Of a stretch of DNA of 64,000 bases, positions 11,353 to 57,486 are shown in pieces (positions within the stretch are counted from its first letter, which is position 1; each line of letters starts with the position of its first letter). The position numbers and the translations under genes are program-made. The DNA is from an uncultured bacterium. GTDB taxonomy: Bacteria; Bacillota_I; Bacilli_A; RF39; UBA660. A model generated the notes under the pieces. It had not been told where the DNA came from and ran no database searches. It was given only the letters and a program-made list of their open reading frames with translations. The stretch spans positions 183,313 to 247,312 of the forward strand of contig CASEYV010000001.1 of NCBI GenBank assembly GCA_949292245.1, in the 5' to 3' direction.

Positions 11353-14300
11353 ATGGCAATCAAACAAGTTGTTAAAAAAGACCTTAAAGAGTTTTTTCCA
11401 AAAGAATTTTCAAATAGACGATTAATCGGAAAATTTATTGATTATGTTATGAATAATTTCTTTCAAACATCATCAGAAGAATATATTAATGGTTATGTTG
11501 GTAAAAAATCTGTAGCTTTGGAAGAAGGTGATTTTTATATTAAAGAAAATTCTTCTGAAAGACAAGTTTATCAATTAACTCCAGCTTTAATCTCTAAAGA
11601 TGCTATTACAGGAGAAAATAAGGCGATAGTTGAGTATTGTAATTTTATTAATACATTAAAATTACAAGGTTGTGATATTAATGACCAAAATAGATTATTA
11701 TCCAATGAATATTGGTCTTGGTGTCCACCAATTAATATTGATATGTTTTTAAATTATAATTTTTATTATTGGATAGAAGAAGGACAAGACCCTATTGAAA
11801 TAGTTGGTAGAACTAATATTATTTTAGATATTCTTGGTAAAGAGCATTATACATATATTAATGAAGAAAATTCAGATGATAGAGTTGAATTTTTATCTGG
11901 ATTAAGAGTAAAATTTTTAAATGATGAAAACCCAGAATATAATAATAAAGTTTATATTGTAGAAGGGGTTGGAAAATCTATAGAATTGATTGAAGATGAT
12001 AATATTTTATATTCAAAAAATATAGAACCAGACTACTATGTAATGGAAAGAGGTTGTGTTGATGGAAACTCTTGGTCATTAAGAAATAGATGGTTTCATC
12101 GTTCAGTTATTTCTAAGATGACTGCTATTGAAACAAAAAAATATAAACAAGCTAAAAAACCAATTATATGTTTTAATAAAGATATACAATTATATAATTA
12201 TGGTACATATAATCGTGGTTATGTTGATTTATATGTTGAAGCTAAAAAAAGTTCAATACACGGTGTTGCTCCACAACCAATTCAAAATGTTGAATTAAAA
12301 GATGGTATGACAATATTAATAACCGGTGATGATAATGTTGAAAATAATAATAAAATTTATCAAATATCTGGTGTTTCTAGTATTAATACTGTAATTTTAC
12401 AACCTATTATTAATGGTTTGTCAGCATCTGGTGAAGCGGTTGATGGTGAAGGTATTAATATTAGATTAGGAAGATATGCTGGACAATATTTTTATTTTAA
12501 AGATGGTCAATGGATTAACGGACAACAAAAAAATAATATAAATCAATCTCCATTGTTTAAATTATTTGATGATAATAAAGTTGAATTAGACAATAATTTA
12601 ATTTATCCACAATCATCATTTAAAGGTAGTAAATTATTTGATTATGTTGAAACTGATGCTGAAAATGCTGTTTATGATGAAGATTTAGGAAAATACATAT
12701 TAACAGATGGTTATGGAAACTATAAATTTAATAATTTATTAGATTCTGAATCGTTTACATATAATTATTACGATACAATTAAAACATATACAGGGTTCAA
12801 ATTTTTTAAATTAAATGGTTCTGATACTTATTTAAATACATGGTATTTGTCTAAAGATATTACTTCGCAATATATAACAACTGAAATAACAGTTACTGAT
12901 ATTCGTGAATATAAAGAAATAGAAGAAGAATCTGGATTAAAAACAAAATATACAGTTTATAAATTAGCATATCAACCAGATGTATCAAATATTAGAAAAT
13001 CATCATTTGTATATTTAAATGGGACATTATTAAATGAAAAAATTGATTATTTGATTCAAGATAAGCAACTTTTATTAACTGAAAATGTATCTTTAAAAGT
13101 TGATGATAATTTGTATATTAAATTATTGGTTAAAAAATTAGATAGTGAAATAGCTGAAAATTATTTTTATGATTTACCTTTATCATTGACAGCCAATGCA
13201 ATGAATGGAAATATAACAGAAATTAATTATAGTGAGTGCTTTGACCAATTAAAATCAATAATTGAAAATCAAAGTAATTTTGAAGGCGAAGGTGGCGGTT
13301 ATAATAATTATAATAATACTAAAAAAGACTTGTCATTGGGAACAGAAATTTTACAACATTCAAATCCTATTTTGAAAACAATGTTATTAAATTCTCAACA
13401 ATATACTAATATTAGAAATATTTTGGAATTTATAAGCAATGAATATTCTAAATTTAAAAATAAATTTAAAACAGTTATTACAACAATGAGTAATAATGGA
13501 GAATATACAGAGGAAAGCGATGTTGTAAAAATTGTAATGGAAGCTCTTAATAGAATTAATTTGGGCAAAGAAGGATTAAACGCATTTTATAATAATGGTG
13601 TGGCTTCTGAATTTGGTGAAACATATATACCTGCTACTCCAGCATATTTAGGAATTGATAATTGTTATAAGCCAGAAATTATAACATTAGATAATCAGAA
13701 TAAATCTACTGTTTTATTATGTCATGATGGTTCTTATACACAATTATTTAATGATTATAGAGATAATGCTTTATTGAGAATGGAACAAGCTATATATGAT
13801 TCTATACCTTTAAAATGGAAAACAACTTTACCTGTTTATAATAAGTATAAAAATATTCCTGGTAAATTTAGAAAAACTGATTATTCTTTAACAGAATATA
13901 AAGATTTTTCAGTTCCATTTTTGGAAAAATGGTGTAATGATAATAATTATGATTATACTGACCATTCTAATTTTGATTATACTGACCCATTTACTTGGAA
14001 TTATTCAACTTGTATAGATGTAGATGGTGAACAATTATATGGTTCATACCGTTCAATATATTTGTATTATTATGATACATATAGACCTCATACTCACCCA
14101 TGGGAAATGATAGGTTTTGGTTCAAAACCAGATTGGTGGGAATCATATTATGGTAAAGCTCCATATAATTCTTCAAATATTCCAATGTGGAAAGACATTG
14201 AAAATGGTTATATAGCTGATGGTGAAAATAAAGGAATTCATGAAGAATTTAAACGTCCTAATTTGGTTGAAAAATATTTACCAGTTGATGAAAATGGAAA

Positions 14301-17300
14301 TTTATTAAATCCAATACAAATAGGTATTGTAACTAAAGCTCCTATTGCGTTCTATGCTTCTCAACCATGGGTAGCTGGTGATATGGGTAGTGTTGAAACA
14401 GCTTGGACATTTACTTCTGAATATAGATATAATTTACAAACAATAATGTATTTAATGAGACCTATTGAATGGGTTGAACATAATTGGGATACTTTAAATA
14501 GAATTACTTTATTTAAAGGAACTGATTATGAACAAACAATTTATGAAAATACAATTAATAGACCATCACCATCAGAAATATATGTTCATAATGAAGTAAT
14601 AGACGGAGTTTATTTAAAGAATATAGGTATTCAACAATGGATATCTGACTTTTTGACAAATGAAAACATTAGTATTACAGATTATGCCGGCTCAATGATA
14701 AGAAATATAGATATGGTTTTATCTTATCGTTGCGGAAGATACTTTAAAAAAGATAGTTTAAAAATTATTTCTGATAATTATGGTGTTTTACCATCACAAA
14801 ATTATCATATTGATTTATACAAATCACAAACAAATAAACAATCTGTATATTCAGCTATGTTAATCACTAAAGTTGAAAATGGCTATATGTTAGATGGTTA
14901 TAATTTAAGTGACCCATATTTTAATGTTTTTGAACCAATATTAACAGGTAAAAAAACAAATGTTGAAATTAATAATAAAAATGTAATTTATTATAATAAT
15001 TGGAAAACAGATGGTGATAATAATGTTCGTAGAGTTAAATATAAAACTATTTTTACATCTGTTCAAGAATTATTCAATATTATTTGTGGTTATGGCAAAT
15101 ATTTAGAAGAAATGGAAGGCTGGGTATTTAATAAAGTTTTATCTTCTTCTGGAACATTAATAGATTTTAATACAAAAGCTGAAGATTTTGTTAAATGGGT
15201 TACATTAAATCCAACTAATGGTCAATTAATAATATTGAATCCAGGTTTTGAAGGCTTAACAATAATGCATGATGCATTTTTAGATACTGTTGGTCAATAT
15301 ATAAATGGATATTGGACTGTATTAGATACAAATGGAAATCCAATATATAATAATGAATTAGATGTTTATCGTCATAATGGTTATTCTGATATAATGTCAA
15401 AAGTTAAAGTATTGACAACATTGAAAACAAATATTGTTGAAAATGAGCATATTATTTTATTTGACAATAAAACATTATATGGTGACATATTATACGACCC
15501 AATGTTATGTATTAAAGCACAACGATTAAAAATAATTGGAACTGCTGTATCTGATTGGGATGGAACATTCTATGCTCCAGGATATTTAATTGATAGTGAT
15601 GGAGCTGTTCCTAATTATGATAAATTAGCAGAAGACTTTAAATACTTTTTTGATACAGATGATGTTAGAGCTCAAGGAATATTTGGAGATTATGCCAAAA
15701 AAACAATAGGATTTCAAAAATTACCAAATATGGAAAGATTATTAATTGATGATAGAAATATTTTTGATTTCTATAAAGGTATGTTAAAAGAAAAAGGTAC
15801 AAGACGTTCATTTGGTAAATTAAATCGTTCAAATTATATTATGAATAATAATAGTTCTCAAATAGATTTATATGAGAATTGGGCTTTCAAATTGGGAGAA
15901 TTTGGTTATACTTCAGATAACTACTTAATGGAGTTTAAAATAAATGCTAAAGATATAACACAAGACCCTCAAATTATTTCATTTACAACTTCTGATATTC
16001 CAAATAATGATAATTCAATAATTGAAATTTGTTGGAATGATAAAAATTGGTTGAAAAAATTAGCAAATAAAGAAGATAATACATTTTTATTTAATAATAA
16101 TACTAAATTTAATCCTATCGGTGGTTTTGCTAGAATAGAAGATGTAAATTATATAGTGGCTAATGATGAAGAATTTGAAAAAGTTCAAGAAAATATTAAA
16201 TTAAATGAAACTATTTGGGTTGTTAAAACATCAAATAAGAATTGGGATATATTAAAAAAAGTTGAAGATGGATTTATGTCCATGAGAGTTAATAATATAT
16301 CTCAATTAAAAACTTTTGATACTTCAAAATTGGTTAAAAATGATTTAGTTTATGTATCAGCTGATATTTTGAATAATCATCTTGATTATGTTAAAGACCC
16401 AGAAAATTTAATGCGTAAAGGTCAATATATTGTTGATAGTATTGCTTGGTCAATATTTAAATATAATGGCGAAGATTTTGAACTTTATCGTATTCAAAAT
16501 AAGGTTGTAGATTTGACAAAATTCAATGATTGTTTTATGATAAATGATGATACAAATGAAACTTTATCAAAAATTCATTTATATGACCCAATACAAGGTA
16601 TTATTCCAAATAAAGTGTTAGATGAAGTTAATTATATTACTTCTATTGACCCTGTATTTGATTATAATGATTTTTATAAATGGGGTGATGACAAAGTTGG
16701 TTATTTGTGGTGGGATATATCAAAAGTAAGATATCTTGATTACCATCAAGGTGATATTTATTATAGAAGAAAGAATTGGGGTAAGCAATTACCAGGTTCT
16801 GAAATAGCTGTTTATGAATGGTATAAATCAAATAAAAAACCAGATGATAATACAGTTAAATATGTTACAAAAGAATTATATAATTATGAAACATCAACAT
16901 ATGATACTTACTATTATTATTGGATTAAAAATCCATCTGATATACCAGATGTTGATTTTAGACACATATCTGCATTAACAATTTCACAAACTATTAATTC
17001 TCCACAAGATGAAGGTATAATATGGTTTGCTCCATTATATATTGGAACCGGCGATTATAAATACAGTTCGTTTATTATTGGTAATTTCGATAATGTTTCT
17101 ACAGGTAATGATTTTGTAATTCAGTTTAATTTTAAAAATGCTGTTGATATGGATGAGCATGTTGAATGGGTTTTAGTTCGTGAGGGTGATGACGATAGAA
17201 TTCCTGAATCATTGTGGAATAAAATGAAATATAGTTTAATAGGATATGATTCATTAGGAAATGCTATTCCAGACCCATCATTAGATGATAGAAATAAAAT

Positions 17301-18036
17301 TGGTATTTTGATTAGACCAAGACAAACAATGTTTAAGAGTTTAGAAAATTCTCGTAGAAATTTTGTTGATGTTGTTAATGATATATTTGATACTCGTGAT
17401 GTAATGACATCTACAGATGTAGGAACGACTGAATTTAATAAAACATTTTTAGATAGTGACCCATATCCTGAAAGTGATTTTGAACCATTTGAATCTTATT
17501 ATGATATGCAACAAAACAAAGATTCAAGTTTAATTGGTAAAAAATTACTTGTAGAACATGATGAAAATTACGATGGTATATGGACATTGTGGGAAATGAC
17601 AGCTATTGGTAAATTTAAATTGTTACAATATCAAACATATGATGTTAAAAAATATTGGTATTATAAAGATTTATATAAAGATGTTAAAGCATCTATGGAA
17701 CAACCATTGAGAATATTTGAAACTGAAGTAGAATTAAATGATTATTTCTATAATCATAATACAGTTGAAAAAGGTTCTATATATAAAGTTTATAACCGTG
17801 AAGGTAAATGGGAACTTGTTGAATTTACTGGTATGCAAGGAACTGTTCCAACATTTAACAAAATAGGTATGCAAGATGGAACTATTAATTTAACTGATGG
17901 ATTATATGAATTTTTATCTAATAAATCAATTGTTGACGATACAAATAAATTTATTGGAGATATTACAAAATATGAATATTTAATGAATGAAACATCTATT
18001 ATTATTGATAAAATAATATCATATTTTGAAAAATAA
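11353..18036 (+). CDS. giant (2227-aa) virion structural protein (baseplate/fibre class)
   Basis: Uninterrupted 6.7-kb ORF with a late promoter and terminator, set in the tail module. No family recognised. Confidence 0.5.
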   Translation: MAIKQVVKKDLKEFFPKEFSNRRLIGKFIDYVMNNFFQTSSEEYINGYVGKKSVALEEGDFYIKENSSERQVYQLTPALISKDAITGENKAIVEYCNFINTLKLQGCDINDQNRLLSNEYWSWCPPINIDMFLNYNFYYWIEEGQDPIEIVGRTNIILDILGKEHYTYINEENSDDRVEFLSGLRVKFLNDENPEYNNKVYIVEGVGKSIELIEDDNILYSKNIEPDYYVMERGCVDGNSWSLRNRWFHRSVISKMTAIETKKYKQAKKPIICFNKDIQLYNYGTYNRGYVDLYVEAKKSSIHGVAPQPIQNVELKDGMTILITGDDNVENNNKIYQISGVSSINTVILQPIINGLSASGEAVDGEGINIRLGRYAGQYFYFKDGQWINGQQKNNINQSPLFKLFDDNKVELDNNLIYPQSSFKGSKLFDYVETDAENAVYDEDLGKYILTDGYGNYKFNNLLDSESFTYNYYDTIKTYTGFKFFKLNGSDTYLNTWYLSKDITSQYITTEITVTDIREYKEIEEESGLKTKYTVYKLAYQPDVSNIRKSSFVYLNGTLLNEKIDYLIQDKQLLLTENVSLKVDDNLYIKLLVKKLDSEIAENYFYDLPLSLTANAMNGNITEINYSECFDQLKSIIENQSNFEGEGGGYNNYNNTKKDLSLGTEILQHSNPILKTMLLNSQQYTNIRNILEFISNEYSKFKNKFKTVITTMSNNGEYTEESDVVKIVMEALNRINLGKEGLNAFYNNGVASEFGETYIPATPAYLGIDNCYKPEIITLDNQNKSTVLLCHDGSYTQLFNDYRDNALLRMEQAIYDSIPLKWKTTLPVYNKYKNIPGKFRKTDYSLTEYKDFSVPFLEKWCNDNNYDYTDHSNFDYTDPFTWNYSTCIDVDGEQLYGSYRSIYLYYYDTYRPHTHPWEMIGFGSKPDWWESYYGKAPYNSSNIPMWKDIENGYIADGENKGIHEEFKRPNLVEKYLPVDENGNLLNPIQIGIVTKAPIAFYASQPWVAGDMGSVETAWTFTSEYRYNLQTIMYLMRPIEWVEHNWDTLNRITLFKGTDYEQTIYENTINRPSPSEIYVHNEVIDGVYLKNIGIQQWISDFLTNENISITDYAGSMIRNIDMVLSYRCGRYFKKDSLKIISDNYGVLPSQNYHIDLYKSQTNKQSVYSAMLITKVENGYMLDGYNLSDPYFNVFEPILTGKKTNVEINNKNVIYYNNWKTDGDNNVRRVKYKTIFTSVQELFNIICGYGKYLEEMEGWVFNKVLSSSGTLIDFNTKAEDFVKWVTLNPTNGQLIILNPGFEGLTIMHDAFLDTVGQYINGYWTVLDTNGNPIYNNELDVYRHNGYSDIMSKVKVLTTLKTNIVENEHIILFDNKTLYGDILYDPMLCIKAQRLKIIGTAVSDWDGTFYAPGYLIDSDGAVPNYDKLAEDFKYFFDTDDVRAQGIFGDYAKKTIGFQKLPNMERLLIDDRNIFDFYKGMLKEKGTRRSFGKLNRSNYIMNNNSSQIDLYENWAFKLGEFGYTSDNYLMEFKINAKDITQDPQIISFTTSDIPNNDNSIIEICWNDKNWLKKLANKEDNTFLFNNNTKFNPIGGFARIEDVNYIVANDEEFEKVQENIKLNETIWVVKTSNKNWDILKKVEDGFMSMRVNNISQLKTFDTSKLVKNDLVYVSADILNNHLDYVKDPENLMRKGQYIVDSIAWSIFKYNGEDFELYRIQNKVVDLTKFNDCFMINDDTNETLSKIHLYDPIQGIIPNKVLDEVNYITSIDPVFDYNDFYKWGDDKVGYLWWDISKVRYLDYHQGDIYYRRKNWGKQLPGSEIAVYEWYKSNKKPDDNTVKYVTKELYNYETSTYDTYYYYWIKNPSDIPDVDFRHISALTISQTINSPQDEGIIWFAPLYIGTGDYKYSSFIIGNFDNVSTGNDFVIQFNFKNAVDMDEHVEWVLVREGDDDRIPESLWNKMKYSLIGYDSLGNAIPDPSLDDRNKIGILIRPRQTMFKSLENSRRNFVDVVNDIFDTRDVMTSTDVGTTEFNKTFLDSDPYPESDFEPFESYYDMQQNKDSSLIGKKLLVEHDENYDGIWTLWEMTAIGKFKLLQYQTYDVKKYWYYKDLYKDVKASMEQPLRIFETEVELNDYFYNHNTVEKGSIYKVYNREGKWELVEFTGMQGTVPTFNKIGMQDGTINLTDGLYEFLSNKSIVDDTNKFIGDITKYEYLMNETSIIIDKIISYFEK

Positions 18037-26984: not shown

Positions 26985-28058
26985 ATGTCTAAAAACTTGG
27001 ATAAAAAATTGTTAGCAGAAGCATTTGATGCGATTGTTAATGATAATGATGTTGCTAAAGCTACAAGACTTTTTAAACGTCATTGGGATTTGGCTGCTAA
27101 AAATAGTTACGCATTATTAGAATCTGCTGATGAAGATTTTGAAATTTCTGACATGGGTGATGATTTTAATAATGAAATTGCTGATGAAATTGGTTCTGAT
27201 TCAGAAGAAAAATTCAATCAAATTCAAATTGCTATCGATGAATTAGAAGATAAATTCCCAGCTGAAGTTACAGATGAAGTTCGTGCTAAATTTGATGATT
27301 TAAGAAACATCGTTGATGAAATGAAATTATCAGAAGAAGGCGAAGACGAAGGTTTAGCTGATGATGCTGCTGTTGCCTTAGAAGATTTAAGAGGTGAATT
27401 TGATATGGCTGGTGAAATGTCAGATGAAATCAATGATTTATTTGATGAAATTTCTTCTGGTTTACAAGGTGAAGAAGTAGCTGATGATGAAATCGATGTT
27501 GCTGATGATGAAGATGCTGAATTAGCTGATGAAGATTCAGAAGTAATTGATGAAGCTGACGAAGGTATGGAAGATTCTGACGTTGATTTAGAATTTGAAG
27601 ATTCTGATGAAGAAGCTGGTGATGAATCAATGGAAGCTGATGAAGAAGATGATGAAGATAAAGATTATGACGAAGTTCAACGTGGTGAAGACGAAGTAAT
27701 TGATGATATTAAATATTCAGCTGATGAATTAGTAGCTTTAATCGATGAATTAGAAGGCATCGAAGGCGAAGAAAAAGAAGCTGTTGAAGAATCTTGGTCA
27801 AAAATTTCTGACCCACGCAAAAAAATGACTTCTGAAGAAGAAGGTGTTAATAAAAAAGGCACAATGAACTTTGGTAAATTAAGAGGTTTATCTCTTGCAA
27901 AAGCTGGCTTAGGAACAAAAGATTCTGACTCTAAAGGAACATCAGCTGATAAAAAAGTAAAAGTTCAATCAAATGATAATAAAGGTGCTAAACAATGGCA
28001 TAAAGTTGAAAAACCTGCCAATAAACCAGCATCTGGTAAATCAATGATGGGTAACTAA
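26985..28058 (+). CDS. hyper-acidic head-module protein (prohead core/internal protein candidate)
   Basis: 357 aa, with long D/E-rich tracts through most of the protein and a basic Lys-rich C-terminus. It lies immediately upstream of the prohead protease in the same operon. Confidence 0.5.
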   Translation: MSKNLDKKLLAEAFDAIVNDNDVAKATRLFKRHWDLAAKNSYALLESADEDFEISDMGDDFNNEIADEIGSDSEEKFNQIQIAIDELEDKFPAEVTDEVRAKFDDLRNIVDEMKLSEEGEDEGLADDAAVALEDLRGEFDMAGEMSDEINDLFDEISSGLQGEEVADDEIDVADDEDAELADEDSEVIDEADEGMEDSDVDLEFEDSDEEAGDESMEADEEDDEDKDYDEVQRGEDEVIDDIKYSADELVALIDELEGIEGEEKEAVEESWSKISDPRKKMTSEEEGVNKKGTMNFGKLRGLSLAKAGLGTKDSDSKGTSADKKVKVQSNDNKGAKQWHKVEKPANKPASGKSMMGN

Positions 28059-28072
28059 TAAAGGATAGAAGA

Positions 28073-28744
28073 ATGGTAGATATATTAAATAAACCAGTTC
28101 TTCAAGAATATATCGGTCACGGTCAGTCAAAATTATTGGCTGACCCAACCGATTATGTTGATGAATATGGTAATAAAAAGAAACATTGGTATTTGAACGG
28201 TATCTTTATTCAAGGTGAGATTCAAAACCTTAATGGTCGTATCTACCCAAGAGAAGAAATTGCCAAAGCTGTTCAAGATTTATCTGAACAGATTAAATTA
28301 CATGGTGGTGTTCTTGGAGAATTAGACCACCCAGATACATTAGTTATCAATGTTCACAATGTATCTCATATGATTACAGAAATACATATGGAAGGAAATG
28401 ATGGTGTCGGTAAAATGAAAATTTTATCTAATACCCCATCTGGAAAAATTGTTGAAGGATTACTTATGGACGGAGTTCCATTAGGAGTAAGCTCTCGTGG
28501 TTCAGGTAATGTAGATGAATGGTCAAGTAGAGTTTCAGATTTTGAAATTATTACTGTTGATATTGTTGCTACACCTTCAGCACAAGATGCTAGACCTACA
28601 CCAATTTATGAAAAATTCCAAGGTGGAAAAGGTCAGCATTTATTAAATAATGCTCAAGATTATATTTTGGGCAATTCTAAGACACATGAAAAAGAATTAA
28701 ACGAAGATATAGTTTCTTGGTTTAAATCTTGGAGTTACAAATAA
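28073..28744 (+). CDS. prohead core protease, T4 gp21 family
   Basis: YLNGIFIQGEIQNLNGRIYPREEIAKAV...GELDHP...GNDGVGKMKIL...GVPLGVSSRGSGNV aligns with gp21 YIEGIFMQAEVVNRNKRLYPKRILEKAV...GELNHP...GNDVYGRARVI...GWIPGVSSRGLGSL. Confidence 0.85.
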   Translation: MVDILNKPVLQEYIGHGQSKLLADPTDYVDEYGNKKKHWYLNGIFIQGEIQNLNGRIYPREEIAKAVQDLSEQIKLHGGVLGELDHPDTLVINVHNVSHMITEIHMEGNDGVGKMKILSNTPSGKIVEGLLMDGVPLGVSSRGSGNVDEWSSRVSDFEIITVDIVATPSAQDARPTPIYEKFQGGKGQHLLNNAQDYILGNSKTHEKELNEDIVSWFKSWSYK

Positions 28745-30066: not shown

Positions 30067-31254
30067 ATGGGAAACCTTTTATTAGAAAATGCGGTTGCTT
30101 GGAATAAATTGAAAAAAGGTATGGTATCTGATATTAAATCAGCTACTCGTAGAGCAATCACTGAAACAGTTTTAGAAAACTCTCGTAGAGAAATCTTGAG
30201 AGAACACGCAACAACAGGTGCTACAAATGCTGCTAACGTTGCTATTATCAACAAAGTTATGATGCCTTTAATTAAACGTGTTATGCCTACTGTTATGGCT
30301 CACGAATTAGTTGGTGTTCAACCTTTAACAGGTCCTTCTGGTTTAATCACAACTATGAGAATTAGATATGCAACTACTTCTCCTGTTGATGGTAAAGGTA
30401 TTATCGCTGGTCAAGAAGCTATGTCTCCATTCTTAGTAGGTGCTTGGTATTCTGGTAACGAAGATATGGAAAATCCAGGTGCTGCTGATACAGCTATCTT
30501 AGAAGGTACTGGTGGTAACGATATTTCTATCGAATTCGTAAAAGAAGATGTTAAAGCTGGCTCAAGAAAATTGAAAGCTAGATTTACATTAGAATCTATG
30601 CAAGATGCTGAATCTCAATACGGTGCTAATGTTGAACAAGAATTAACTTCTGCTTTAGCTCAACAAATCGTATTAGATATCGACCAAGAAATCTTGGCTA
30701 GATTAAGAAGTATTGCTGGTTTATCAGTAGCTACTTACGACCAAAACAAAATCTCTGGTGTTGCTACATCAGTTGTTGACGAACATGCTGCATTAGCAGT
30801 TATGATTAACAGATATTCAAATGAAATTGCAAGAAAAATCAGAAAAGCATCTGCTAACTGGTCTGTAGTTTCTCACACAGTATTATCTGTATTACAATCT
30901 GCAACAGCTTCTCAATTCGTAAGAACAACAGAAGGTGCTTTCGAAGCTCCAACTAACAACAAATTCGTTGGTACTTTAAACAACACATTAAAAGTTTATG
31001 TTAATACATATGCTACAGATGATGATATCTTAATTGGTTATAAAGGTTCAGATGAAATCGATGCTGCTGCATACTATTGTCCTTATATCCCAGTTATGTC
31101 ATCTGGTACAATCTTAGACCCTAACACATTTGAACACGTTATGGCTTTATCAACTCGTTATGGCTTCTTCGCTTTAACAAATCCTGCTAACTCATTAGGC
31201 AATGCTGGTGACTACTTAGCAAGAATTAAAGTTGCTAACTTACGTTTCATCTAA
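30067..31254 (+). CDS. major capsid protein, T4 gp23 family (short form without a large insertion)
   Basis: KVMMPLIKRVMPTVMAHELVGVQPLTGPSGLITTMRIRY aligns with gp23 TSLPLMRRVYPNLIAHDIVSVQPMSGPTGQVFALRAVY. It shows high-expression codon usage, and a strong terminator follows. Confidence 0.85.
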   Translation: MGNLLLENAVAWNKLKKGMVSDIKSATRRAITETVLENSRREILREHATTGATNAANVAIINKVMMPLIKRVMPTVMAHELVGVQPLTGPSGLITTMRIRYATTSPVDGKGIIAGQEAMSPFLVGAWYSGNEDMENPGAADTAILEGTGGNDISIEFVKEDVKAGSRKLKARFTLESMQDAESQYGANVEQELTSALAQQIVLDIDQEILARLRSIAGLSVATYDQNKISGVATSVVDEHAALAVMINRYSNEIARKIRKASANWSVVSHTVLSVLQSATASQFVRTTEGAFEAPTNNKFVGTLNNTLKVYVNTYATDDDILIGYKGSDEIDAAAYYCPYIPVMSSGTILDPNTFEHVMALSTRYGFFALTNPANSLGNAGDYLARIKVANLRFI

Positions 31255-31273
31255 TTGTTAGATTTAGTTATTG

Positions 31274-31302
31274 AAAAGAGTGGTTTTTAACCACTCTTTT
31301 TT
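31274..31302 (+). terminator. rho-independent terminator after the capsid gene
   Basis: aaaagagtgg-tttttaa-ccactctttt followed by tt. Confidence 0.85.
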
Positions 31303-31358
31303 ATTATATAATACCTTTATCAATAAATATATTATATGATAATAATAAGGAATTGTCA

Positions 31359-32939
31359 ATGAAAATTTATAAATTATTAAACCCATATAAATTGTTATGT
31401 GAAGCTGAACAATTAGATGAAGCATTATCTACCGATTTTAAAATTGGTTTTGAAATGGAAGGTGTTTGTACAAGAGAAGGATTTAATTCTTATATGTTAC
31501 CTGGATATCACTCTCAATCACAACCATCTGGTGTTGTAGCAGAATTATTTGATGATATTAATGAAACATTAGGTTTTGGTAAAGGTAAAATTGAAAGAGA
31601 TGGTTCATTGCGTGCATCACCAGAAAAAGGTGGTTGGACATTTGAATATGGTTCTCCAATTATTGATTTTAATCCAACTAATATAAATAAAATTTATCAT
31701 TTCTTAAAAAAAGTTCCAGAATTACAAATTTACACAAATGAAACTTGTAGTTTTCATACGCATATGTCTTTTAAAGATTTAGATAAAATAAATGGTGCTT
31801 GGGTTATGTGTTGTTTGGCTATTGATGAAGAAATGCAAGAAACATTAAGACATTTAAAAACAAAAAATTCAAATATTGATTTCTTTCACGGAGAATGGGC
31901 TAGAACATATCTATTCGATAATATTAAAGAATATTTAATTAATCATGAATATAAACAAATATCAAGATTATTAGATTCAACTGATAAGTATAATTTAGTT
32001 CGTGTTCACCCCGCTGGAACTCTTGAATGGAGAGGTCCAAGAAACTTTTTAAATGATTCTGATATTGAAGCAATTCATGGATATATTTTAAAATTATATA
32101 AAGTAATTGTTAAATTATCACAAATTGTTAATGCTCAAACTTATTCTGGCAGTGGTATTACAATTAATAGAAAAGAGATTGAATCACAAGTATCAATTAC
32201 TAGAGATTTTAAATCTCCAGCACAAAATAAAAAAGATGCAAAAATAAATAGTTTATCTACAGCTATACAAAAAAATCCTTTAATTTTAACAAAAATAAGT
32301 AATGATAAATTTAAAGATTTTTTTGACAAATATCCAAATAAAATAGCAGAATATTTTTGGTATGATGCTGATGATAGAGATGGAAAACCAAAAATAATAT
32401 TAGGTTTGAATAATTATAAAATAAATTTTATAATAAATGAAATTTATAAAGGTGGTAATTTGACCACTGTATTAAAATTATATAATTTATTGGATATTAA
32501 TTTAAATGATAAATTAAATGATGATACGAAAAAAAATGTTATTAATTCTTTATTAAAGAGTTTATTTCAAAATCAATATAGTGGAAATGTATTTAAACAA
32601 TTATTTAAAGATTATGAAGTAATGGATAATAAATATCTTCCATATATATATGAATTTATTAATGATAAAGATATTTCCGAATCTCTTATAAGATTTATAA
32701 AACAATTACAAGAAAATTTTGATTTCAAAGTTCCTATGGATTTTTGGAAGAAATTATTAAATAGTAATAAATTTTATTATATTTCTCGATTTAATGAAAT
32801 ACCTACAAAAGTTCAAAGAATGATGGTTAGAAGAAGTCCATATATGGTTCAATATATTAATAATCTTGACCCTCAAATTTTAAATTCTTTAAAACAAAAA
32901 TATCCAAATATTGAAGATTATACATTAGGAGTATTATAA
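31359..32939 (+). CDS. amidoligase-like protein (glutamine-synthetase-fold Amidoligase_2 pattern) with a long helical C-terminal extension
   Basis: GFEMEGVC...ERDGSLRAS...TFEYGSPII...NETCSFHTHMSF matches the remembered family pattern G.E.E...DGS...E..sP...sCG.HvH. An ATG at 31359 with an AAGGAA RBS is preferred over the TTG at 31353. Confidence 0.55.
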   Translation: MKIYKLLNPYKLLCEAEQLDEALSTDFKIGFEMEGVCTREGFNSYMLPGYHSQSQPSGVVAELFDDINETLGFGKGKIERDGSLRASPEKGGWTFEYGSPIIDFNPTNINKIYHFLKKVPELQIYTNETCSFHTHMSFKDLDKINGAWVMCCLAIDEEMQETLRHLKTKNSNIDFFHGEWARTYLFDNIKEYLINHEYKQISRLLDSTDKYNLVRVHPAGTLEWRGPRNFLNDSDIEAIHGYILKLYKVIVKLSQIVNAQTYSGSGITINRKEIESQVSITRDFKSPAQNKKDAKINSLSTAIQKNPLILTKISNDKFKDFFDKYPNKIAEYFWYDADDRDGKPKIILGLNNYKINFIINEIYKGGNLTTVLKLYNLLDINLNDKLNDDTKKNVINSLLKSLFQNQYSGNVFKQLFKDYEVMDNKYLPYIYEFINDKDISESLIRFIKQLQENFDFKVPMDFWKKLLNSNKFYYISRFNEIPTKVQRMMVRRSPYMVQYINNLDPQILNSLKQKYPNIEDYTLGVL

Positions 32940-33850
32940 TGATTAAATTATTTGAAGATTTAAAAAATTTAAATATGATTGACCGTTCATTTTTTATGGA
33001 TGGCGGTAGAATGGAAAAATTAAAACAAATAACAATGACTCCTAATAGTAGAATAGAGGTGTCAAAAATTCTTCCACATAAATTTACAACTGTAATGGAA
33101 AAACTTTCAGAAGATGATGTTGCTGCTATAGTTATACGAGCTCATAAACGTCAATTATTATTTGTTACCAAAGATGAAAGAATTGGTAGAGTTATGAATG
33201 GGTATTATAATTATAATTATTATGTTGTAATGTCTGATTATGCCTATACTAATTGTAATTCTCATGATTATAGAAAACAAACATCTTATAATACAGAAGC
33301 ACCAGCTAAAACTCAAATAAGTAGAACTGTAAAAGATTTTTATGAAAGAGTTGCTCCTGAAGGAACAAAAAAAAGTTGGGATGCATTAATTATATATAGA
33401 GATGAACAAGTAGATGATTTAAGACAAAAACGTGCGGAAATGAATAAAAATAGAGTTTATGTTCCATCTGATGGTCGTAAATATAGTGATTTTATTGATA
33501 ATCTTGAAAGTGCATTTCAAGAAAGAGCTGTTAAATATATTGATGCTCATCGTCCTAATATTCAAAATGCAGAAGAATTAAAACAATTAATGATGAAAGT
33601 TTCTAAATTAGATAAAATTAAATATAAAGGTAATATATATACATATACTGATAGTCGTGTATCTTTAACTAATAGAGGTACATCTTATATTCAATATGTA
33701 GCAACTAATGATGATAGAGGAAGAGTAAATCCACAAGTTATTTATGTAATACTTACATTTAAAGGTATAATGCCACAAATTGTTGATGTTAGAGCATCAG
33801 AATATAGATATACAAGTTATGATAGTTCTGATGTTCAAAGTATAGAATAA
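32939..33850 (+). CDS. hypothetical protein translationally coupled (ATGA overlap) to the amidoligase-like gene
   Basis: 303-aa ORF whose start overlaps the preceding stop. No family recognised. Confidence 0.5.
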   Translation: MIKLFEDLKNLNMIDRSFFMDGGRMEKLKQITMTPNSRIEVSKILPHKFTTVMEKLSEDDVAAIVIRAHKRQLLFVTKDERIGRVMNGYYNYNYYVVMSDYAYTNCNSHDYRKQTSYNTEAPAKTQISRTVKDFYERVAPEGTKKSWDALIIYRDEQVDDLRQKRAEMNKNRVYVPSDGRKYSDFIDNLESAFQERAVKYIDAHRPNIQNAEELKQLMMKVSKLDKIKYKGNIYTYTDSRVSLTNRGTSYIQYVATNDDRGRVNPQVIYVILTFKGIMPQIVDVRASEYRYTSYDSSDVQSIE

Positions 33851-33852
33851 AA

Positions 33853-33880
33853 AATTGGGAGATTATTTAATCTCCCAATT
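33853..33880. terminator. bidirectional hairpin terminator
   Basis: aattgggagatt-attt-aatctcccaatt. It overlaps the last codons of the HNH gene. Confidence 0.7.
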
Positions 33881-34433
33881 CTTCTTCCCAATAAGATTCG
33901 TTTAACCAATCTTCATATTTTGTTGGTTTATAATGAGATGATATTCTTTCTAAATGACCCATTGTAGGTATAAAAGGTTTATGTATTAAATTCATATGCG
34001 ATTCTTCTAATGTTTTACCACCCTTTCTACCGTTACATTCTCTACAAGCTGTTACAATATTTTCCCAAGTAGTAGTTCCACCTTTACAACGTGGTATAAC
34101 ATGGTCAAAAGTTAAATCTTCTGCTTTAAATTTTTTACCACAATATTGGCATGTGTAATCATCTCTTAAATAAACATTTTTACGGGAAAATTTTGGTTTA
34201 TGAGAAACATTAACATATTTTTTTAATACAACAACTTTTGGTAATTTCATTTCTTTATTTTGAACAGTAATTGTATCATCGTATTCTTTAACAACAGAAA
34301 TACGACCTTTTAATAAAGATTTTAAAACTTTTTTCATACTGTTTAAAGATAAAGGGTATTTACTTAATGGTTGATAATCACCGTTTAAAATAAGAACTGG
34401 TTTACCCATAATGTTTTTTGTTTTTATTTTCAT
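33867..34433 (-). CDS. HNH endonuclease
   Basis: CQYCGKKF...LTFDHVIPRCKGGTTTWENIVTACRECNGRKG is a classic HNH/McrA-type motif. The listed start at 34472 lies inside a terminator hairpin, so an internal Met (34433 or 34409) is more likely. Confidence 0.85.
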   Translation of the reverse strand: MKIKTKNIMGKPVLILNGDYQPLSKYPLSLNSMKKVLKSLLKGRISVVKEYDDTITVQNKEMKLPKVVVLKKYVNVSHKPKFSRKNVYLRDDYTCQYCGKKFKAEDLTFDHVIPRCKGGTTTWENIVTACRECNGRKGGKTLEESHMNLIHKPFIPTMGHLERISSHYKPTKYEDWLNESYWEEELGD

Positions 34434-34454
34434 AATTTTATACCATATAAAAAT

Positions 34455-34480
34455 TAACCTCATTGTTTTCAATGAGGTTA
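34455..34480 (-). terminator. rho-independent terminator for the 34513..35049 gene
   Basis: taacctcattg-tttt-caatgaggtta, followed by a T-rich tract on the minus strand. Confidence 0.7.
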
Positions 34481-39557: not shown

Positions 39558-40805
39558 TTATTCGTCATCTCCGTCCCAATAATCTTCATTAATATCTTTA
39601 TAATTATCAATTAAATGTTTTTCAGGTTCAATATATCTTACATGTGATGGAGTAGATGAATCATCAAAATATTTTACAAATTCTATTTCATAGAAAAAAC
39701 CTAACCCACTTTTATATTCAATATTTTTAATAGTAGCTATGTCACCTGATTCGATATGGATTAATTGTTGACCTTTAGAAAATAAAGATTTTTGCATTGA
39801 TTCTAATAATTCTTCATCTTCATCATCTTCACCATCCCACTCATTGTCGGATATTTTTTCCCATTTAAAGAAAGCAGATTCTCTAATCCATTCATCATCA
39901 AAATAATTCCCTTTATCTGTTTTAATTTTATATAATGGACAACCATCTTCTGAATCATATTCATGAGAATCAGTTATGGTTACGATAATACCTGTTTTTG
40001 TTTTAAATTGGTCGCCAATATTAAATTGTGGAACACGATGATAGTATGTTTCATTTAATTCTTCATCATCTTCACCGTCCCAATAATCTTCTTTAACTTT
40101 GATATAATTTATAAGTAAAGGAGTATTATAAATATCATCTAAAACTTGATGTGTTGCAATATTTGTTAATTGATATACAGGTTGGCTATATAATTTATTA
40201 TTAAATGAAAAATATGTTCTTTTGATATCAGAAACTAAATATCTGTCGCTTTTTCCTATTTTTTTAAATTCATCACCTATTGAAGCTAATTCATCACATT
40301 CCATTTTAAGATGTTCTGGTAAATCATTTATATTTCCATTTGGTAAATCTGGTAAATGATTTCTTTTTAAAAATTCTTCACGGGCTCTATCATAAGTTTC
40401 ATTTATTTTTTTACCATTGAATTTATTCCATGCTTTACCATATAGATATTTTTTATATTGTTTTCCATATCTATCTTGAAATCTTTGTTTATTATCTTCA
40501 ATCCATTTTTCAATTTGAGAATCTGGTGGAGCTACTTCATCTATTGGTTTAGATAAAGCACATTTTCTACGACCTTTAGCTGTAAAATATATTTCATGTT
40601 GAGGATTTTTTCTACGACATAATAAACCTTTGGTTACCATATCAGAAGCAATACGTTGGTCGTATTCATCTAATTCTGATTTTAATAATTTACCATTTTC
40701 TTTAACTTTGGTATATATTTTCTTTTCATCATTATTTAATGAACGTAAAATACCATTTATAGATACGGTTTGAAAGTTTTCAATTATAAATTCATTAATT
40801 TTCAT
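39558..40805 (-). CDS. hypothetical protein with two small beta-rich repeats separated by DYWDG-acidic linkers
   Basis: 415 aa. The motifs are KEDYWDGEDDEELNE, NEWDGEDDEDEELLE and a C-terminal NEDYWDGDDE. Confidence 0.55.
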   Translation of the reverse strand: MKINEFIIENFQTVSINGILRSLNNDEKKIYTKVKENGKLLKSELDEYDQRIASDMVTKGLLCRRKNPQHEIYFTAKGRRKCALSKPIDEVAPPDSQIEKWIEDNKQRFQDRYGKQYKKYLYGKAWNKFNGKKINETYDRAREEFLKRNHLPDLPNGNINDLPEHLKMECDELASIGDEFKKIGKSDRYLVSDIKRTYFSFNNKLYSQPVYQLTNIATHQVLDDIYNTPLLINYIKVKEDYWDGEDDEELNETYYHRVPQFNIGDQFKTKTGIIVTITDSHEYDSEDGCPLYKIKTDKGNYFDDEWIRESAFFKWEKISDNEWDGEDDEDEELLESMQKSLFSKGQQLIHIESGDIATIKNIEYKSGLGFFYEIEFVKYFDDSSTPSHVRYIEPEKHLIDNYKDINEDYWDGDDE

Positions 40806-43775: not shown

Positions 43776-46169
43776 ATGAGATTTATAATTGAAACAATAT
43801 CTGGTAGAAAAGGTATTAAGAATTTTGAAAATATTAATGAATATGTTGATTTTATGACTAAAAATGGTAATAAAATTAAAGATATTTTTGAAGCTGATAT
43901 GCCTTACGATGATAAACCAGTTAAATTATCAGATGTTACAACATCTGATGGTTGGAAACAAATTGATTCTTCTGCTTTTGGAAAAATCGATAGTAAAGCT
44001 GAAAAAGGTGATTGTATATTACCTACAAAATCTAAGAGTGTTTTTAAAGATGAAGCTAAATTTGAACCTACAAAATCTTCAGAAAAAGAAGATAGTTCAT
44101 CTTCAAATGTAAAAGTTAAATCACAAACTAATTCTGAATCTAAATCAGAAACAGAAAAAGAAGTAGAAAAAGATTTACCTAAATTTAAATATGAAGATGA
44201 TAATAAATCTGATGATAAAGAAAATAAATCAGAAGAAAAAGAAAAAAATAAGAAAATAGATGAAGCGGTTGAAACACAACCAGATATGTTTGATAATGAA
44301 TATGATACAAATTATGTTGATGGAGTTCAAACATATACTTTTCATGAAATAAATGATTTTATGAGTAAAATTGCCCCAAATTTAAGTTATACTAATGATG
44401 ATGAACAAAATGGTAAAGTATATTTAGGATATTGGGGAAATAATTTATCATTTAATGAATATAAGAGAATTGCTCAAGAAATTAAAAATAAATTTAATGG
44501 AAATGTTCAAGCACATTTAGCTAGAGCACAATATTCTCCAGAACAAAAAACATTATATATTTCTTATACTCCTACACCAGATGATGAACAAGAATTAACA
44601 GAAGATTTTAAAAATGGTTTAAAAAAAGCTGGCAAATATGTTAAAGGAGCTTTAGCTGGTGCAGCTATGGCTGGTGCATTAGCTGGCAACGCACACGCAA
44701 TGGAAGACCCATATTATGATGGTGCAACACAACCATTTGATAGTTCATATGAACAAGTTCAAGATGATTCTGATATGCCACAAATTAAAGCTGTTAAATC
44801 AGATGGAACAATAGTTGACCAATATGGCAATGAATACACAAAAGAAGAATTTGAAGCATTAAAAAGAGGTGAAGACCCATATTATGATGGTGCTAAACAA
44901 CCATTTGGTGAATCTGAAAATTTTGATGATGAAATCAAAGAATCATTAAGAATTGCTGGCGTTGAATTAAATGAAGATTATTACAATCAAGCTAATGATG
45001 AAATAGATGACGGTCAAGATATTGATGACGAAAAAGTTATTGATTCTATTGAACAAATAATGCAAGATAAAGGTATTTCTGAAGAAGAAGCTGTTCAAGA
45101 ATATATTAATTTTTCTGGTATGGATGAAAATATAGTTCAAGATATTTGGAATGATTATAAATCATATTCTGAACAAGCTAATAATGAAGAAGATGGTAAA
45201 CCAGATGAAAAATCAGGAAAGAAAAAATTATTTGAAGAAGACCCATTAGAAGAAGCTCCAATGTCTGATGAAGATTTTGATAGTTTAGAAGACGGAGATA
45301 AAGTTAATTGGGATTTATCAAAATATGATGGAAATTATACTGTTAAGAAAGATGGTGATAAAATAAACTTTATGGGCGATGATGGTCAAGGTAATCAATT
45401 TGATATGGGCAGACAAAAAGATTATGTTAAAAAATACTTTTCAAAAGGTCATAAAGAAAGTCCTGATAAAGATAGCGTGCAATATGCAGAAGATATGGTA
45501 AAATCATTAATTCATGATAAAGAAATGGCAGAATATGATGATTTTGCTTATACAAATGGCAGAATGAGTCGTATTAATAGAAATTTGGATTTTTGGACAG
45601 ATGAGCTTGAAAAAAGACGTGCAAGAGATGCTAAACTTAATGAATCAGAAGAAGAACCATTAGAAGAAGAAATTACTCCTTCAAGATTATGGAAATATCA
45701 AGAACATCCTGAAATGAATTTTGCTATTCTTTCTGCTGACAGAAGTGAAAGAACACCAGAAGAAAATAAAGAAAAATCAGAAGAATTAAAAAAAGATATT
45801 AAATCGATGGGTTATTGGTATACTGAATTAAAAGGTGGTTATGTTGAAGTTGGTAAAAATGGAAAGAGAGTACCTGTTGATGGTGAGGATTCATTCATTG
45901 TACCAAATATGACTAAAGAAGAAGCAATGGAATTAGGTAAAAAATATGACCAAGATACAGTAATGTTTAAAGATGCAAAAGCACATACATTACAATATAT
46001 CATTACTAATGAAAGAGCCGGTAATATTGGTGATGCTGATTCTTCATTTGAAACACAAGCTGGTAAAGATAATTTTTCAGTATCTTCTGGCAATAATTTA
46101 GATTATTATTCAAGACTACCAAAATCAAATAAAAAAGATTTGAAAATTGGTTTTAATTGGAAAGAATAA
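43776..46169 (+). CDS. large multi-domain protein: shared N-terminal module, K/E/S-rich linker, Ala/Gly hydrophobic segment, duplicated EDPYYDGAxQPF motif, and a C-terminal DUF3293-like domain
   Basis: 797 aa. The C-terminal FAILSADRSERTPEENKEKSEELKKDIKSMGYWYTELKGGY...EDSFIVPNMTKEEAMELGKKYDQDTVMF resembles the remembered DUF3293 pattern (fAiiTA.NP....s..eN..r...L...l...G.......G...........E.S.lv......A..lg..f.Q.a). Confidence 0.5.
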   Translation: MRFIIETISGRKGIKNFENINEYVDFMTKNGNKIKDIFEADMPYDDKPVKLSDVTTSDGWKQIDSSAFGKIDSKAEKGDCILPTKSKSVFKDEAKFEPTKSSEKEDSSSSNVKVKSQTNSESKSETEKEVEKDLPKFKYEDDNKSDDKENKSEEKEKNKKIDEAVETQPDMFDNEYDTNYVDGVQTYTFHEINDFMSKIAPNLSYTNDDEQNGKVYLGYWGNNLSFNEYKRIAQEIKNKFNGNVQAHLARAQYSPEQKTLYISYTPTPDDEQELTEDFKNGLKKAGKYVKGALAGAAMAGALAGNAHAMEDPYYDGATQPFDSSYEQVQDDSDMPQIKAVKSDGTIVDQYGNEYTKEEFEALKRGEDPYYDGAKQPFGESENFDDEIKESLRIAGVELNEDYYNQANDEIDDGQDIDDEKVIDSIEQIMQDKGISEEEAVQEYINFSGMDENIVQDIWNDYKSYSEQANNEEDGKPDEKSGKKKLFEEDPLEEAPMSDEDFDSLEDGDKVNWDLSKYDGNYTVKKDGDKINFMGDDGQGNQFDMGRQKDYVKKYFSKGHKESPDKDSVQYAEDMVKSLIHDKEMAEYDDFAYTNGRMSRINRNLDFWTDELEKRRARDAKLNESEEEPLEEEITPSRLWKYQEHPEMNFAILSADRSERTPEENKEKSEELKKDIKSMGYWYTELKGGYVEVGKNGKRVPVDGEDSFIVPNMTKEEAMELGKKYDQDTVMFKDAKAHTLQYIITNERAGNIGDADSSFETQAGKDNFSVSSGNNLDYYSRLPKSNKKDLKIGFNWKE

Positions 46170-57081: not shown

Positions 57082-57465
57082 ATGCGAGTAGGTTATACAA
57101 TTTACGATAAAGAAAAAACAATTAAATTAACATCCGCACCTGAAAATGGTTGGAATATTGTATTTGAAGGATTTGATACAATTAAACCAATGTTTGATTA
57201 TGTATTAGTTGAAAAAGATGAAGAAAAAACAAAGACAGCTGGTGGCTTAGTAATTCCAGATACAATGAAAGAAAAACCAAGCACTGGAACTATTGTCGCT
57301 GTTGGTGATGGATTGATTTGTGAAAAAACAGGTGAATCAATTCCTATGAAAGTAAAAGTTGGTGATAGAATTATTTTTCCTAAGTTAGCTGGTAAAACAA
57401 TTAAAGTTGATGATTCTGAAAAAACAATATTGAAACAATCTGAAATTTTAGGTATTCTTAATTAA
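57082..57465 (+). CDS. groES: co-chaperonin GroES (Cpn10) with an N-terminal extension of about 33 aa
   Basis: IKPMFDYVLVEKDEEKTKTAGGLVIPDTMKEKPSTGTIVAVGDG...VGDRIIFPK...ILGIL is a canonical Cpn10. AGGAG lies 8 nt before the ATG at 57082. Confidence 0.85.
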   Translation: MRVGYTIYDKEKTIKLTSAPENGWNIVFEGFDTIKPMFDYVLVEKDEEKTKTAGGLVIPDTMKEKPSTGTIVAVGDGLICEKTGESIPMKVKVGDRIIFPKLAGKTIKVDDSEKTILKQSEILGILN

Positions 57466-57486
57466 GAATTAAAGGAGATATAAAAT

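Follow-up and report, generated by a model that had tools for sequence, protein, structure and literature searches.

In a 64,000-nucleotide stretch of DNA deposited under an uncultured RF39 bacterium (assembly GCA_949292245.1, contig CASEYV010000001.1, positions 183,313 to 247,312; hereafter the window), two adjacent open reading frames (ORFs) follow the major capsid protein (MCP) gene of a jumbo phage of about 280 kb, whose T4-type head module lies on the + strand. The first, ORF A, is predicted to encode a divergent ligase of the Amidoligase_2 family with the glutamine synthetase (GS) fold, and the second, ORF B, is its conserved partner, with no known family or solved fold. The reading that best explains our data, to which we assign a probability of about one half, is that ORF A is a ligase packaged in the phage head and injected, with ORF B as its partner in the virion and with the N-terminal leaders of both proteins trimmed by a protease. 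ORF A is probably an enzyme of the virus head and not a plain metabolic gene, because distant homologs of both ORF A and ORF B have been detected in the particles of Agrobacterium phage Atu_ph07. An earlier reading of the window by eye and ORF list (the original prediction) had placed both ORFs directly after a capsid gene; we read them at the same coordinates, and the capsid protein belongs to the Gp23 family. The elements of the pair are as follows.

31359-32939, + strand: ORF A, 526 amino acids (aa) from its ATG
31359-31427, + strand: leader of ORF A, residues 1-23, with the L-x-E motifs LCE15 and LDE21; a putative propeptide or head-targeting peptide
31428-32144, + strand: predicted catalytic domain of ORF A, residues ~24-262, a GS-fold, Amidoligase_2-type carboxylate-amine ligase
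32145-32939, + strand: C-terminal all-alpha domain of ORF A, residues ~263-526, and the stop codon, from AlphaFold2 secondary structure (predicted local distance difference test score, pLDDT, >90)
32927-32931, + strand: AGGAG Shine-Dalgarno sequence for ORF B, read directly within the 3' end of ORF A, 7 nt upstream of the ORF B start
32939-33850, + strand: ORF B, 303 aa

Membership in Amidoligase_2 (PF12224) reached ORF A through cutoff-passing orthologs, the predicted fold and the motifs. Among 5.8 billion proteins, 58 relatives of ORF A were found, from metagenomic contigs of 176-281 kb; the 30 full-length orthologs formed one alignment (A1), orthologs together with paralogs formed a second (A3), and 57 sequences including paralogs were used for the AlphaFold2 model. 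The profile search proposed with the original prediction gave a divided answer: the sequence of ORF A itself did not match PF12224, either at full length (E<=0.1) or with the catalytic domain (E<=1), but 27 of the 30 full-length orthologs did (best E 2e-8; 31-35 bits against a gathering cutoff of 22). P0009, P0011 and P0026 scored 31.2, 34.3 and 34.8 bits, and the matches of P0009, P0011 and P0041 (31-34 bits) covered profile positions 3-235 of 245; ORF A is 33-50% identical to the PF12224-passing proteins over 100% of its length (E 1e-72 to 1e-162). Scans of ORF A and ORF B against Pfam and PHROGs otherwise returned only DSPn at E=1.8e-3, below the cutoff and treated as noise, and PDB profile searches with A1 and A3 matched only designed helical bundles, a compositional signal of the C-terminal domain. 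A tblastn search of 50,697 isolate phage records with ORF A gave no match, and the window contains no paralog of either ORF. The start of ORF A is preceded by an AAGGAA Shine-Dalgarno sequence at 31347-31352, which favours the ATG over a TTG at 31353.

The AlphaFold2 model of ORF A has a mean pLDDT of 90.4, and the 50 best Foldseek matches in the PDB were without exception GS, GshA, YbdK or GS homologs (best E 1.2e-4, probability 1.00), in favour of a GS-like fold. The best of these matches reach E values of 1e-4 to 5e-3, with template-modelling scores of only 0.22-0.28 over the full length; ORF A lacks the N-terminal beta-grasp domain of GS and has no detectable sequence similarity to any PDB chain, and what it shares with GS, GshA and YbdK is the pattern of motifs, with E-x-E and E-x-R on the first and last strands, respectively, and G-x-H-x(3)-S. 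The four motifs by which the gene had first been recognised (GFEMEG, ERDGSL, FEYGSPI and CSFHTHMS) are all present and fall in columns that are invariant across the 30 orthologs. The invariant residues are E32, E34, E79, D81, S83, E96, C130, H133, H135, S137, H217, E223, R225 and R228, within the motifs E-x-E, E-x-D-x-S, F-E, H-x-H-x-S and E-x-R-x-x-R, and five of them, H133, H135, E223, R225 and R228 (H-x-H and E-W-R-G-P-R), are invariant across the 57 sequences including paralogs. In GS-type ligases, the pattern of E-x-E, G-x-H-x3-S and E-x-R makes up the site for metal, ATP and acyl phosphate, and the ORF A motifs presumably match the GS residues E129/E131, H269/H271 and E357/R359. Judged by its orthologs' Pfam scores, its modelled fold and its invariant residues, the N-terminal region of ORF A is an Amidoligase_2/GS-fold ligase, as originally proposed, and homology, fold and invariant catalytic-type residues together argue that ORF A is an active ATP-dependent carboxylate-amine ligase. 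In the literature searched, we found no biochemically characterised member of the Amidoligase_2 family.

Outside the catalytic core, ORF A departs from the classical members of its family. The helical extension, described earlier as having no recognisable family, is a domain of about 290 aa, all-alpha and confidently modelled (pLDDT 90), with no Pfam or PDB sequence match. It ends in a conserved motif, P.K.QR...R.SPY..QYI.N.D, in which Q486, R491, P494, Q498, Y499 and I500 are invariant in the 30 orthologs; an assignment of its QYI motif to DUF4116-type repeats was dropped for want of a Pfam match. The literature on PF12224 credits its prediction to Iyer, Abhiman, Burroughs and Aravind in 2009 and places the family in phiEco32, LUZ24-like and OM43 phages, among others. 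ORF A shares with it the catalytic core, the motifs and the GS-like fold; however, it is 526 aa long instead of about 260, it carries an L-x-E leader and the helical domain, it lies with ORF B in a late unit of the head module with no adjacent amidotransferase (GATase) or Aig2-type gene, and its family is multi-copy and arranged in tandem arrays. Classical Amidoligase_2 proteins of about 265 aa have no leader and begin directly at the first catalytic strand. The jumbo-phage subfamily has gained two modules, a flexible N-terminal leader of about 15-23 residues ending in L-x-E and the helical domain of about 290 residues, and the combination of leader, catalytic core and helical domain is a new architecture.

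ORF A and ORF B form a tightly coupled pair. The junction reads ...TTA TAA TG..., with the TAA stop of ORF A at 32937-32939 and the ATG of ORF B at 32939-32941, that is, a 1-nt overlap. The coupling claimed originally is real and is kept in relatives, but the junction is TAATG and not the ATGA overlap first described; the letters ATGA do occur there, but the TGA is not the stop of ORF A. The junction in relatives is a 1-nt overlap (loci L001, L005 and L006), a 4-nt overlap (L003), a 17-nt overlap (L007) or a 2-nt gap (L008), and a homolog of ORF B directly follows the ORF A ortholog in all eight full-length loci examined, which answers positively the question of co-occurrence raised with the original prediction. 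The positional equivalents of ORF B in three loci are 46%, 36% and 26% identical to it, and a word-based search found only close relatives of at least 84% identity. An exhaustive profile search recovered 107 representatives among 1.84 billion proteins, of which 34 constitute a core family, found only in phages; ten distant relatives scanned against Pfam contained no significant domain, the ORF B profile run against IMG/VR added no contig to those in which ORF A had already been found, and tblastn with an ORF B relative gave only noise. The AlphaFold2 model of ORF B (pLDDT 79.5, predicted template-modelling score 0.51) had no relative among PDB folds (best E ~1) and matched two uncharacterised viral proteins in BFVD, the better of which is a 330-aa protein of Atu_ph07 (E 4.5e-12).

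Atu_ph07 is a jumbo phage with a T4-type head, described as related to Rak2-like phages (PMC6102473). Its protein AUZ94978.1 (500 aa) is encoded two genes from the portal gene, and with the portal annotated as gp198, the prohead core protein as gp204 and the MCP as gp215, its position makes it gp196. It contains the motifs GFEFE, EPDGS, VELVSP, TNGSTGFH and IEFR, scores 30.2 bits on PF12224 and aligns with the ORF A family in hhalign (89%, E 2e-6). Like ORF A, gp196 is encoded in the head module and consists of a leader (MRWQDISSKKLTE...), an Amidoligase_2 core and a long C-terminal helical extension; unlike ORF A, it is encoded upstream of the portal gene and on the opposite strand. The ORF B homolog is gp33 (AUZ94845.1, 330 aa; hhalign 93.6%, E 2e-7; hmmsearch 2e-9), with a leader of 24 residues compared with 6 in ORF B. 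Electrospray tandem mass spectrometry of Atu_ph07 virions detected both proteins, gp196 (57.94 kDa) with 14 unique peptides and 30.2% coverage and gp33 with 21 unique peptides and 64.9% coverage, and the portal appears in the same table with 20 peptides and 43% (PMC6102473, Table S5). Both are annotated as hypothetical in GenBank and in that report, and neither was recognised there. By experiment, gp196 and gp33 are virion-associated, and ORF A and ORF B are predicted to be so. The neighbouring protein gp195, also of 330 aa (L045:19930-20922), is encoded tail-to-tail with gp196 and is an RlaP-type nucleotidyltransferase (PF10127, 7.6e-12); it was considered as an ORF B homolog and rejected on this ground and on an hhalign probability of 0.07, the true homolog being gp33. 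Ralstonia phage RsoM2USA (ORF26) and an uncultured phage of 635 kb also encode proteins similar to gp196; the proteomics of RsoM2USA is uninformative on ORF26, since it covered only the ten strongest bands.

The second line of evidence lies in the leaders and in the head module in which the pair resides. On the + strand, this module consists of the portal, an acidic 357-aa protein, the prohead protease, a scaffold-like protein, the capsid protein, ORF A and ORF B, and the order portal, protease, scaffold, MCP, ORF A, ORF B is kept in relatives. Its recognisable features around the pair are listed here.

24101-25876, + strand: portal (PHROG portal, 3e-75)
28073-28744, + strand: prohead protease, Peptidase_S77, T4 gp21 family (Pfam PF03420, 5.7e-23; PHROG head maturation protease, 4.8e-54)
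30067-31254, + strand: MCP, Gp23 family (Pfam PF07068, 7.3e-82)
31273-31301, + strand: hairpin with a 13-bp stem and a T-run, resembling an intrinsic terminator, in the gap between the capsid gene and ORF A
31322-31329, + strand: AATAAATA, a late-promoter-like element, 37 nt before the ATG of ORF A and 3' of the hairpin

Only residues 1-23 of ORF A and residues 1-9 of ORF B were modelled with low confidence (pLDDT <50). E15, L19 and E21 of the ORF A leader are at least 90% conserved in the 30 orthologs, the N-terminus of ORF B contains LFE6, in which L4 and E6 are invariant, and most paralogs of ORF A start with M-x-x-L-L-E just ahead of the first catalytic strand. Distant relatives of ORF B have leaders of 15-25 residues that resemble those of ORF A and whose closing L-x-E directly precedes the conserved core (MKISSLLELEELFEEALLE/HLGNL and ...PRQLDE/HLGNL, where the slash follows the glutamate; an ORF A-type leader for comparison is MKIYKLLNPYKLLCEAEQLDE/A). 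Other head proteins begin in the same way: the N-terminus of the capsid protein, MGNLLLE/N, is similar to the paralog leaders, and that of the protease, MVDILNKPVLQE/Y, to the leaders of ORF A orthologs (M.IYDILNPYKLLCE/A). Across the window, an L-x-E or I-x-E motif occurs in the first 16 residues of 7/7 head-module ORFs and of 11/49 others (p=1.4e-4), and with ORF A and ORF B set aside the counts are 5/5 and 11/49 (p=1.4e-3); whichever cutoff between 12 and 25 residues is used, p remains under 0.004. In both T4 and giant phages, the prohead protease cuts after Glu in x-X-E motifs, and giant-phage heads contain paralog families of ejection proteins (PMC5694885). The T4 core contains gp21, the internal proteins and about 40 copies of Alt, whose N-terminal peptides are cleaved; a targeting sequence of about 10 aa sends proteins into this core, and the propeptides are 10-20 residues long (PMC9958956). 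As in processed proteins of the T4 type, ORF A and ORF B both have an N-terminal x-X-E region, and the genome encodes an S77-type protease.

The transcription signals around ORF A form the third line of evidence. A hairpin with a T-run stands at the same position in L001, L003 and L005 with different stem sequences, so the structure of the terminator, and not its sequence, has been kept. The AATAAATA element, which we liken to the T4 late-promoter core TATAAATA, is kept upstream of the orthologs in L001, L003, L005 and L007. In the window, whose G+C content is about 25%, the form (A/T)ATAAATA is found 20-50 nt upstream of 22 of the 56 genes (about 0.6 expected per variant), including the portal and several virion genes, and it is probably the late-promoter core of this phage clade. 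There are only 45 copies of it on both strands, such as those at 24064, 26156 and 31322 and the minus-strand sites upstream of 36303 and 43114. Because of the conserved terminator and the late-promoter-like AATAAATA, ORF A and ORF B look like a late transcription unit of their own at the end of the head module, expressed below the level of the capsid protein. A separate observation concerns the minus strand at 31331-31359, where a 12/12 match to the sigma-70 consensus (TTGACA-17-TATAAT) overlaps the ORF A start codon and is directed into the 3' end of the capsid gene; it may be due to chance in AT-rich DNA, since promoter-like sites number 37 against 34.9 expected.

Together, the L-x-E leaders, the late promoter and the detection of the Atu_ph07 homologs in a virion proteome suggest that ORF A and ORF B belong to the virion themselves, and that a cytoplasmic enzyme acting on the capsid protein would be too simple a description of ORF A. 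The original prediction had proposed a role in virion-protein modification; its link to the virion is borne out, and modification itself becomes a rival explanation, weighed below. We propose that ORF A and ORF B would be incorporated into the prohead, where the S77 prohead protease, encoded three genes upstream, would cut their leaders after Glu, as happens to the T4 internal proteins and Alt. ORF B would remain as an abundant internal or structural head protein, and the ligase would travel inside the capsid and be delivered together with the DNA; it might then use host ATP to join an amino acid, amine or peptide to a host or phage target, which the variable helical C-terminal domain would pick. 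The proposed logic is shared with T4 Alt and IPI-III, that is, a late head gene that shares its operon with an S77 protease, a short N-terminal peptide ending in x-X-E, and an enzyme that enters together with the DNA. However, ORF A and ORF B have no sequence or fold relation to these proteins, and Alt performs NAD-dependent ADP-ribosylation, whereas ORF A is predicted to perform ATP-dependent amide ligation.

The spread of the family extends this picture. One sister genome contains the capsid-linked ortholog and, in addition, a tandem triplet of paralogs (482, 589 and 478 aa) between the terminase/sheath genes and NrdD/gp13, and paralog doublets and triplets are present on other contigs. The paralogs vary in the helical domain and in their inserts, which are acidic or of the zinc-ribbon type: in P0034-P0038, a long poly-acidic and Tyr-rich insert separates the first catalytic strand from the second, P0055 contains a DnaJ-type CXXCXGXG zinc-ribbon insert, and in P0053 an N-terminal ART-PolyVal ADP-ribosyltransferase domain (54.8 bits) is fused to the amidoligase core. 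Iyer et al. placed ART-PolyVal in proteins injected with phage DNA (PMC7824862). ORF A itself has a single catalytic domain, unlike the polyvalent proteins of Iyer et al. (2017) with their several effector domains, and only P0053 combines two. It is tempting to speculate that these proteins represent a new class of virion-delivered effectors, namely ATP-dependent GS-fold amidoligases that are loaded by protease-trimmed leaders, injected and used to couple amino acids, amines or peptides covalently to proteins or other molecules of the host, with paralog arrays and their variable helical, acidic or zinc-ribbon modules diversified against hosts or their defences and ORF B as a head-resident partner or chaperone; we put this wider proposal forward tentatively and hold it to be possible, although on balance doubtful.

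Several points weigh against a head-packaged and injected ligase. The virion data concern only distant homologs, with 16-18% identity in the aligned regions, and contamination is possible because the Atu_ph07 preparation was purified with polyethylene glycol and yielded 131 proteins; moreover, the genes of gp196 and gp33 are not adjacent in Atu_ph07 but lie 130 kb apart. L-x-E is a short motif in a proteome rich in L, I and E, about five paralogs are without any L-x-E, and the second L-x-E of ORF A borders directly on the first catalytic strand and may have a structural role. In the enrichment test, the 16-residue cutoff and the module boundaries were picked post hoc, and for this S77 protease the cleavage specificity of its T4 counterpart is assumed.

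The alternative nearest to the original prediction is that ORF A acts in the cytoplasm or in association with the prohead and covalently modifies a virion protein (the capsid protein, the scaffold or ORF B) during assembly by attaching an amino acid or peptide to it, its presence in particles being incidental or due to substrate binding. That ORF A belongs to a late unit and immediately follows the MCP gene agrees with this. Its tight coupling to ORF B, whose Atu_ph07 homolog is abundant in the virion, would suit an enzyme and its substrate, and the Pup ligase PafA shows that a GS-fold ligase can act on proteins. However, no PafA or Dop structure is among the 50 best fold matches, the two genes are separated in Atu_ph07, and diversification of effectors accounts better for the paralog arrays and for the ART-PolyVal fusion than does one structural substrate. 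The C-terminus of ORF B is variable (...SIE, ...LES, ...ISF) and not conserved, which makes a Pup-like C-terminal carboxylate donor unlikely; a strict analogy with Pup ligase, with ORF B as the donor, was rejected for these reasons and for the 303-aa length of ORF B. We consider virion modification unlikely as the main role of ORF A, albeit the most serious competitor of a packaged ligase.

A further alternative is that ORF A acts together with a class-II, N-terminal nucleophile (Ntn), glutamine amidotransferase (GAT)-like protein, the product of one more gene in the window.

56146-57000, + strand: class-II (Ntn) GAT-like gene, a possible functional partner of ORF A; sub-threshold matches, product starting with MC

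What the two would make or remodel is a small molecule or a peptide of the cell envelope, with a block to superinfection as one conceivable purpose; this is the classical prediction for phage Amidoligase_2 proteins made by Iyer et al. in 2009, here in the form in which PMC10580990 and PMC11318856 cite it. Gene pairs of PF12224 and PF13522 recur in phages, with functions that are only predicted (PMC10580990), and the GAT-like gene of the window matches Pfam GATase_6 (PF13522) at E=2e-4, GATase_4 at E=1.8e-3 and a GlmS-type PHROG at 1.2e-6, with an MC start that suits an Ntn nucleophile. The gene noted originally is present, but its Pfam assignment stays below threshold (GATase_6, 21.7 bits; cutoff 27). 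It lies 23 kb from ORF A, and genes for a phage GroES (Cpn10, 2.8e-30) and GroEL (Cpn60, 2e-79) follow directly 3' of it at 57082-59118. The co-occurrence check proposed for the two genes added one further contig, IMGVR_UViG_3300012979_000043, where a GAT homolog and an ORF A ortholog are about 20 kb apart; however, this contig belongs to the same syntenic clade, and no GAT-like ORF was found within 10 kb of about 40 family members at 36 loci. Confined to one clade, this co-occurrence carries little information, and the case for a partnership with ORF A is weak. In addition, a small-molecule role leaves unexplained the leader, the late placement in the head module and the detection of gp196 in virions, and we regard it as improbable. 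As a side observation, the IMG/VR loci L027-L036 encode a classical Amidoligase_2 protein of about 265 aa in a block of SMC/AAA (578 aa), amidoligase and peptide deformylase genes, with IMPDH/GMP-reductase upstream. No GATase is adjacent to these short Amidoligase_2 genes in L027-L036, and with SMC/AAA, peptide deformylase and IMPDH as the neighbours, the adjacency of amidoligase and GATase is not universal in that set.

A part in post-replicative DNA base hypermodification, such as the amidation of a modified pyrimidine at an aminoalkyl or carboxyl group, is very improbable: amidoligase and amidotransferase Pfam matches do associate with thymidine-hypermodification genes in viral metagenome contigs (PMC8989533), but the neighbours of ORF A are head genes, and no 5-HMUDK, aGPT-Pplase or dUMP hydroxymethylase was found among the neighbours scanned, the rest of the window not having been profile-scanned exhaustively. 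Equally far-fetched is a catalytically dead GS-fold protein serving purely as a structural part of the head, for which one could cite the window copy falling below the Pfam model, the G131S change in its C-G-F-H-T-H motif and the H-x-N in place of H-x-H in gp196, because every residue of the metal, ATP or phosphate type stays the same in orthologs of only 33-50% identity, and five of these residues do so even in paralogs, which points to purifying selection on an active site and not on a scaffold.

Amidoligase_2 has been annotated in many phages with no demonstrated substrate, and cell-wall, metabolite or peptide modification has been guessed since 2009. The subfamily described here, which apparently travels in the capsid and has a defined partner, provides a concrete place to test the role of Amidoligase_2, and Atu_ph07 is an isolated and culturable phage in whose particles homologs of both proteins have already been detected, unrecognised. 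If ORF A is injected, ATP-dependent amide ligation would join the short list of activities delivered with phage DNA (ADP-ribosylation, RNA polymerase and nuclease inhibitors), and it would become understandable that these jumbo phages retain at least four diversified copies.

Other parts of the window deserve brief mention. The capsid DNA is 65-68% identical to that of Rak2-like jumbo phages such as Munch, CBB and fHe-Yen9-04. The 357-aa protein encoded just 5' of the prohead protease (26985-28058) is extremely acidic and rich in D/E, has no family match and is likely a component of the prohead core or scaffold. After ORF B and convergent to it, an HNH endonuclease gene (HNH_5, 2e-18) lies on the minus strand at 33867-34472; it occupies the same place in L001 and L003 and is absent in L005. 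No tRNA or tmRNA genes were found in the 64-kb window. At 11353-18036, an ORF of 2227 aa has TATAAATA at -36, and the corresponding cluster of Atu_ph07 contains a giant 'T4-like structural protein'. The proteins encoded at 26202-26861 and 43776-46169 have a similar N-terminal module (MKILFEAVNGKKGFKEFKSLKECKYF... and MRFIIETISGRKGIKNFENINEYVDF...), and the longer one (43776-46169) ends in an S-adenosylmethionine methyltransferase-like domain (PHROG, 5e-9). Finally, the minus-strand gene at 39558-40805 encodes a protein that matches a 'virion structural protein' PHROG (8.7e-8) and begins with MKINEFIIEN, which we liken to the T4 capsid-targeting sequence MKTYQEFIAE; by this resemblance, it is a candidate for a further head-internal protein.

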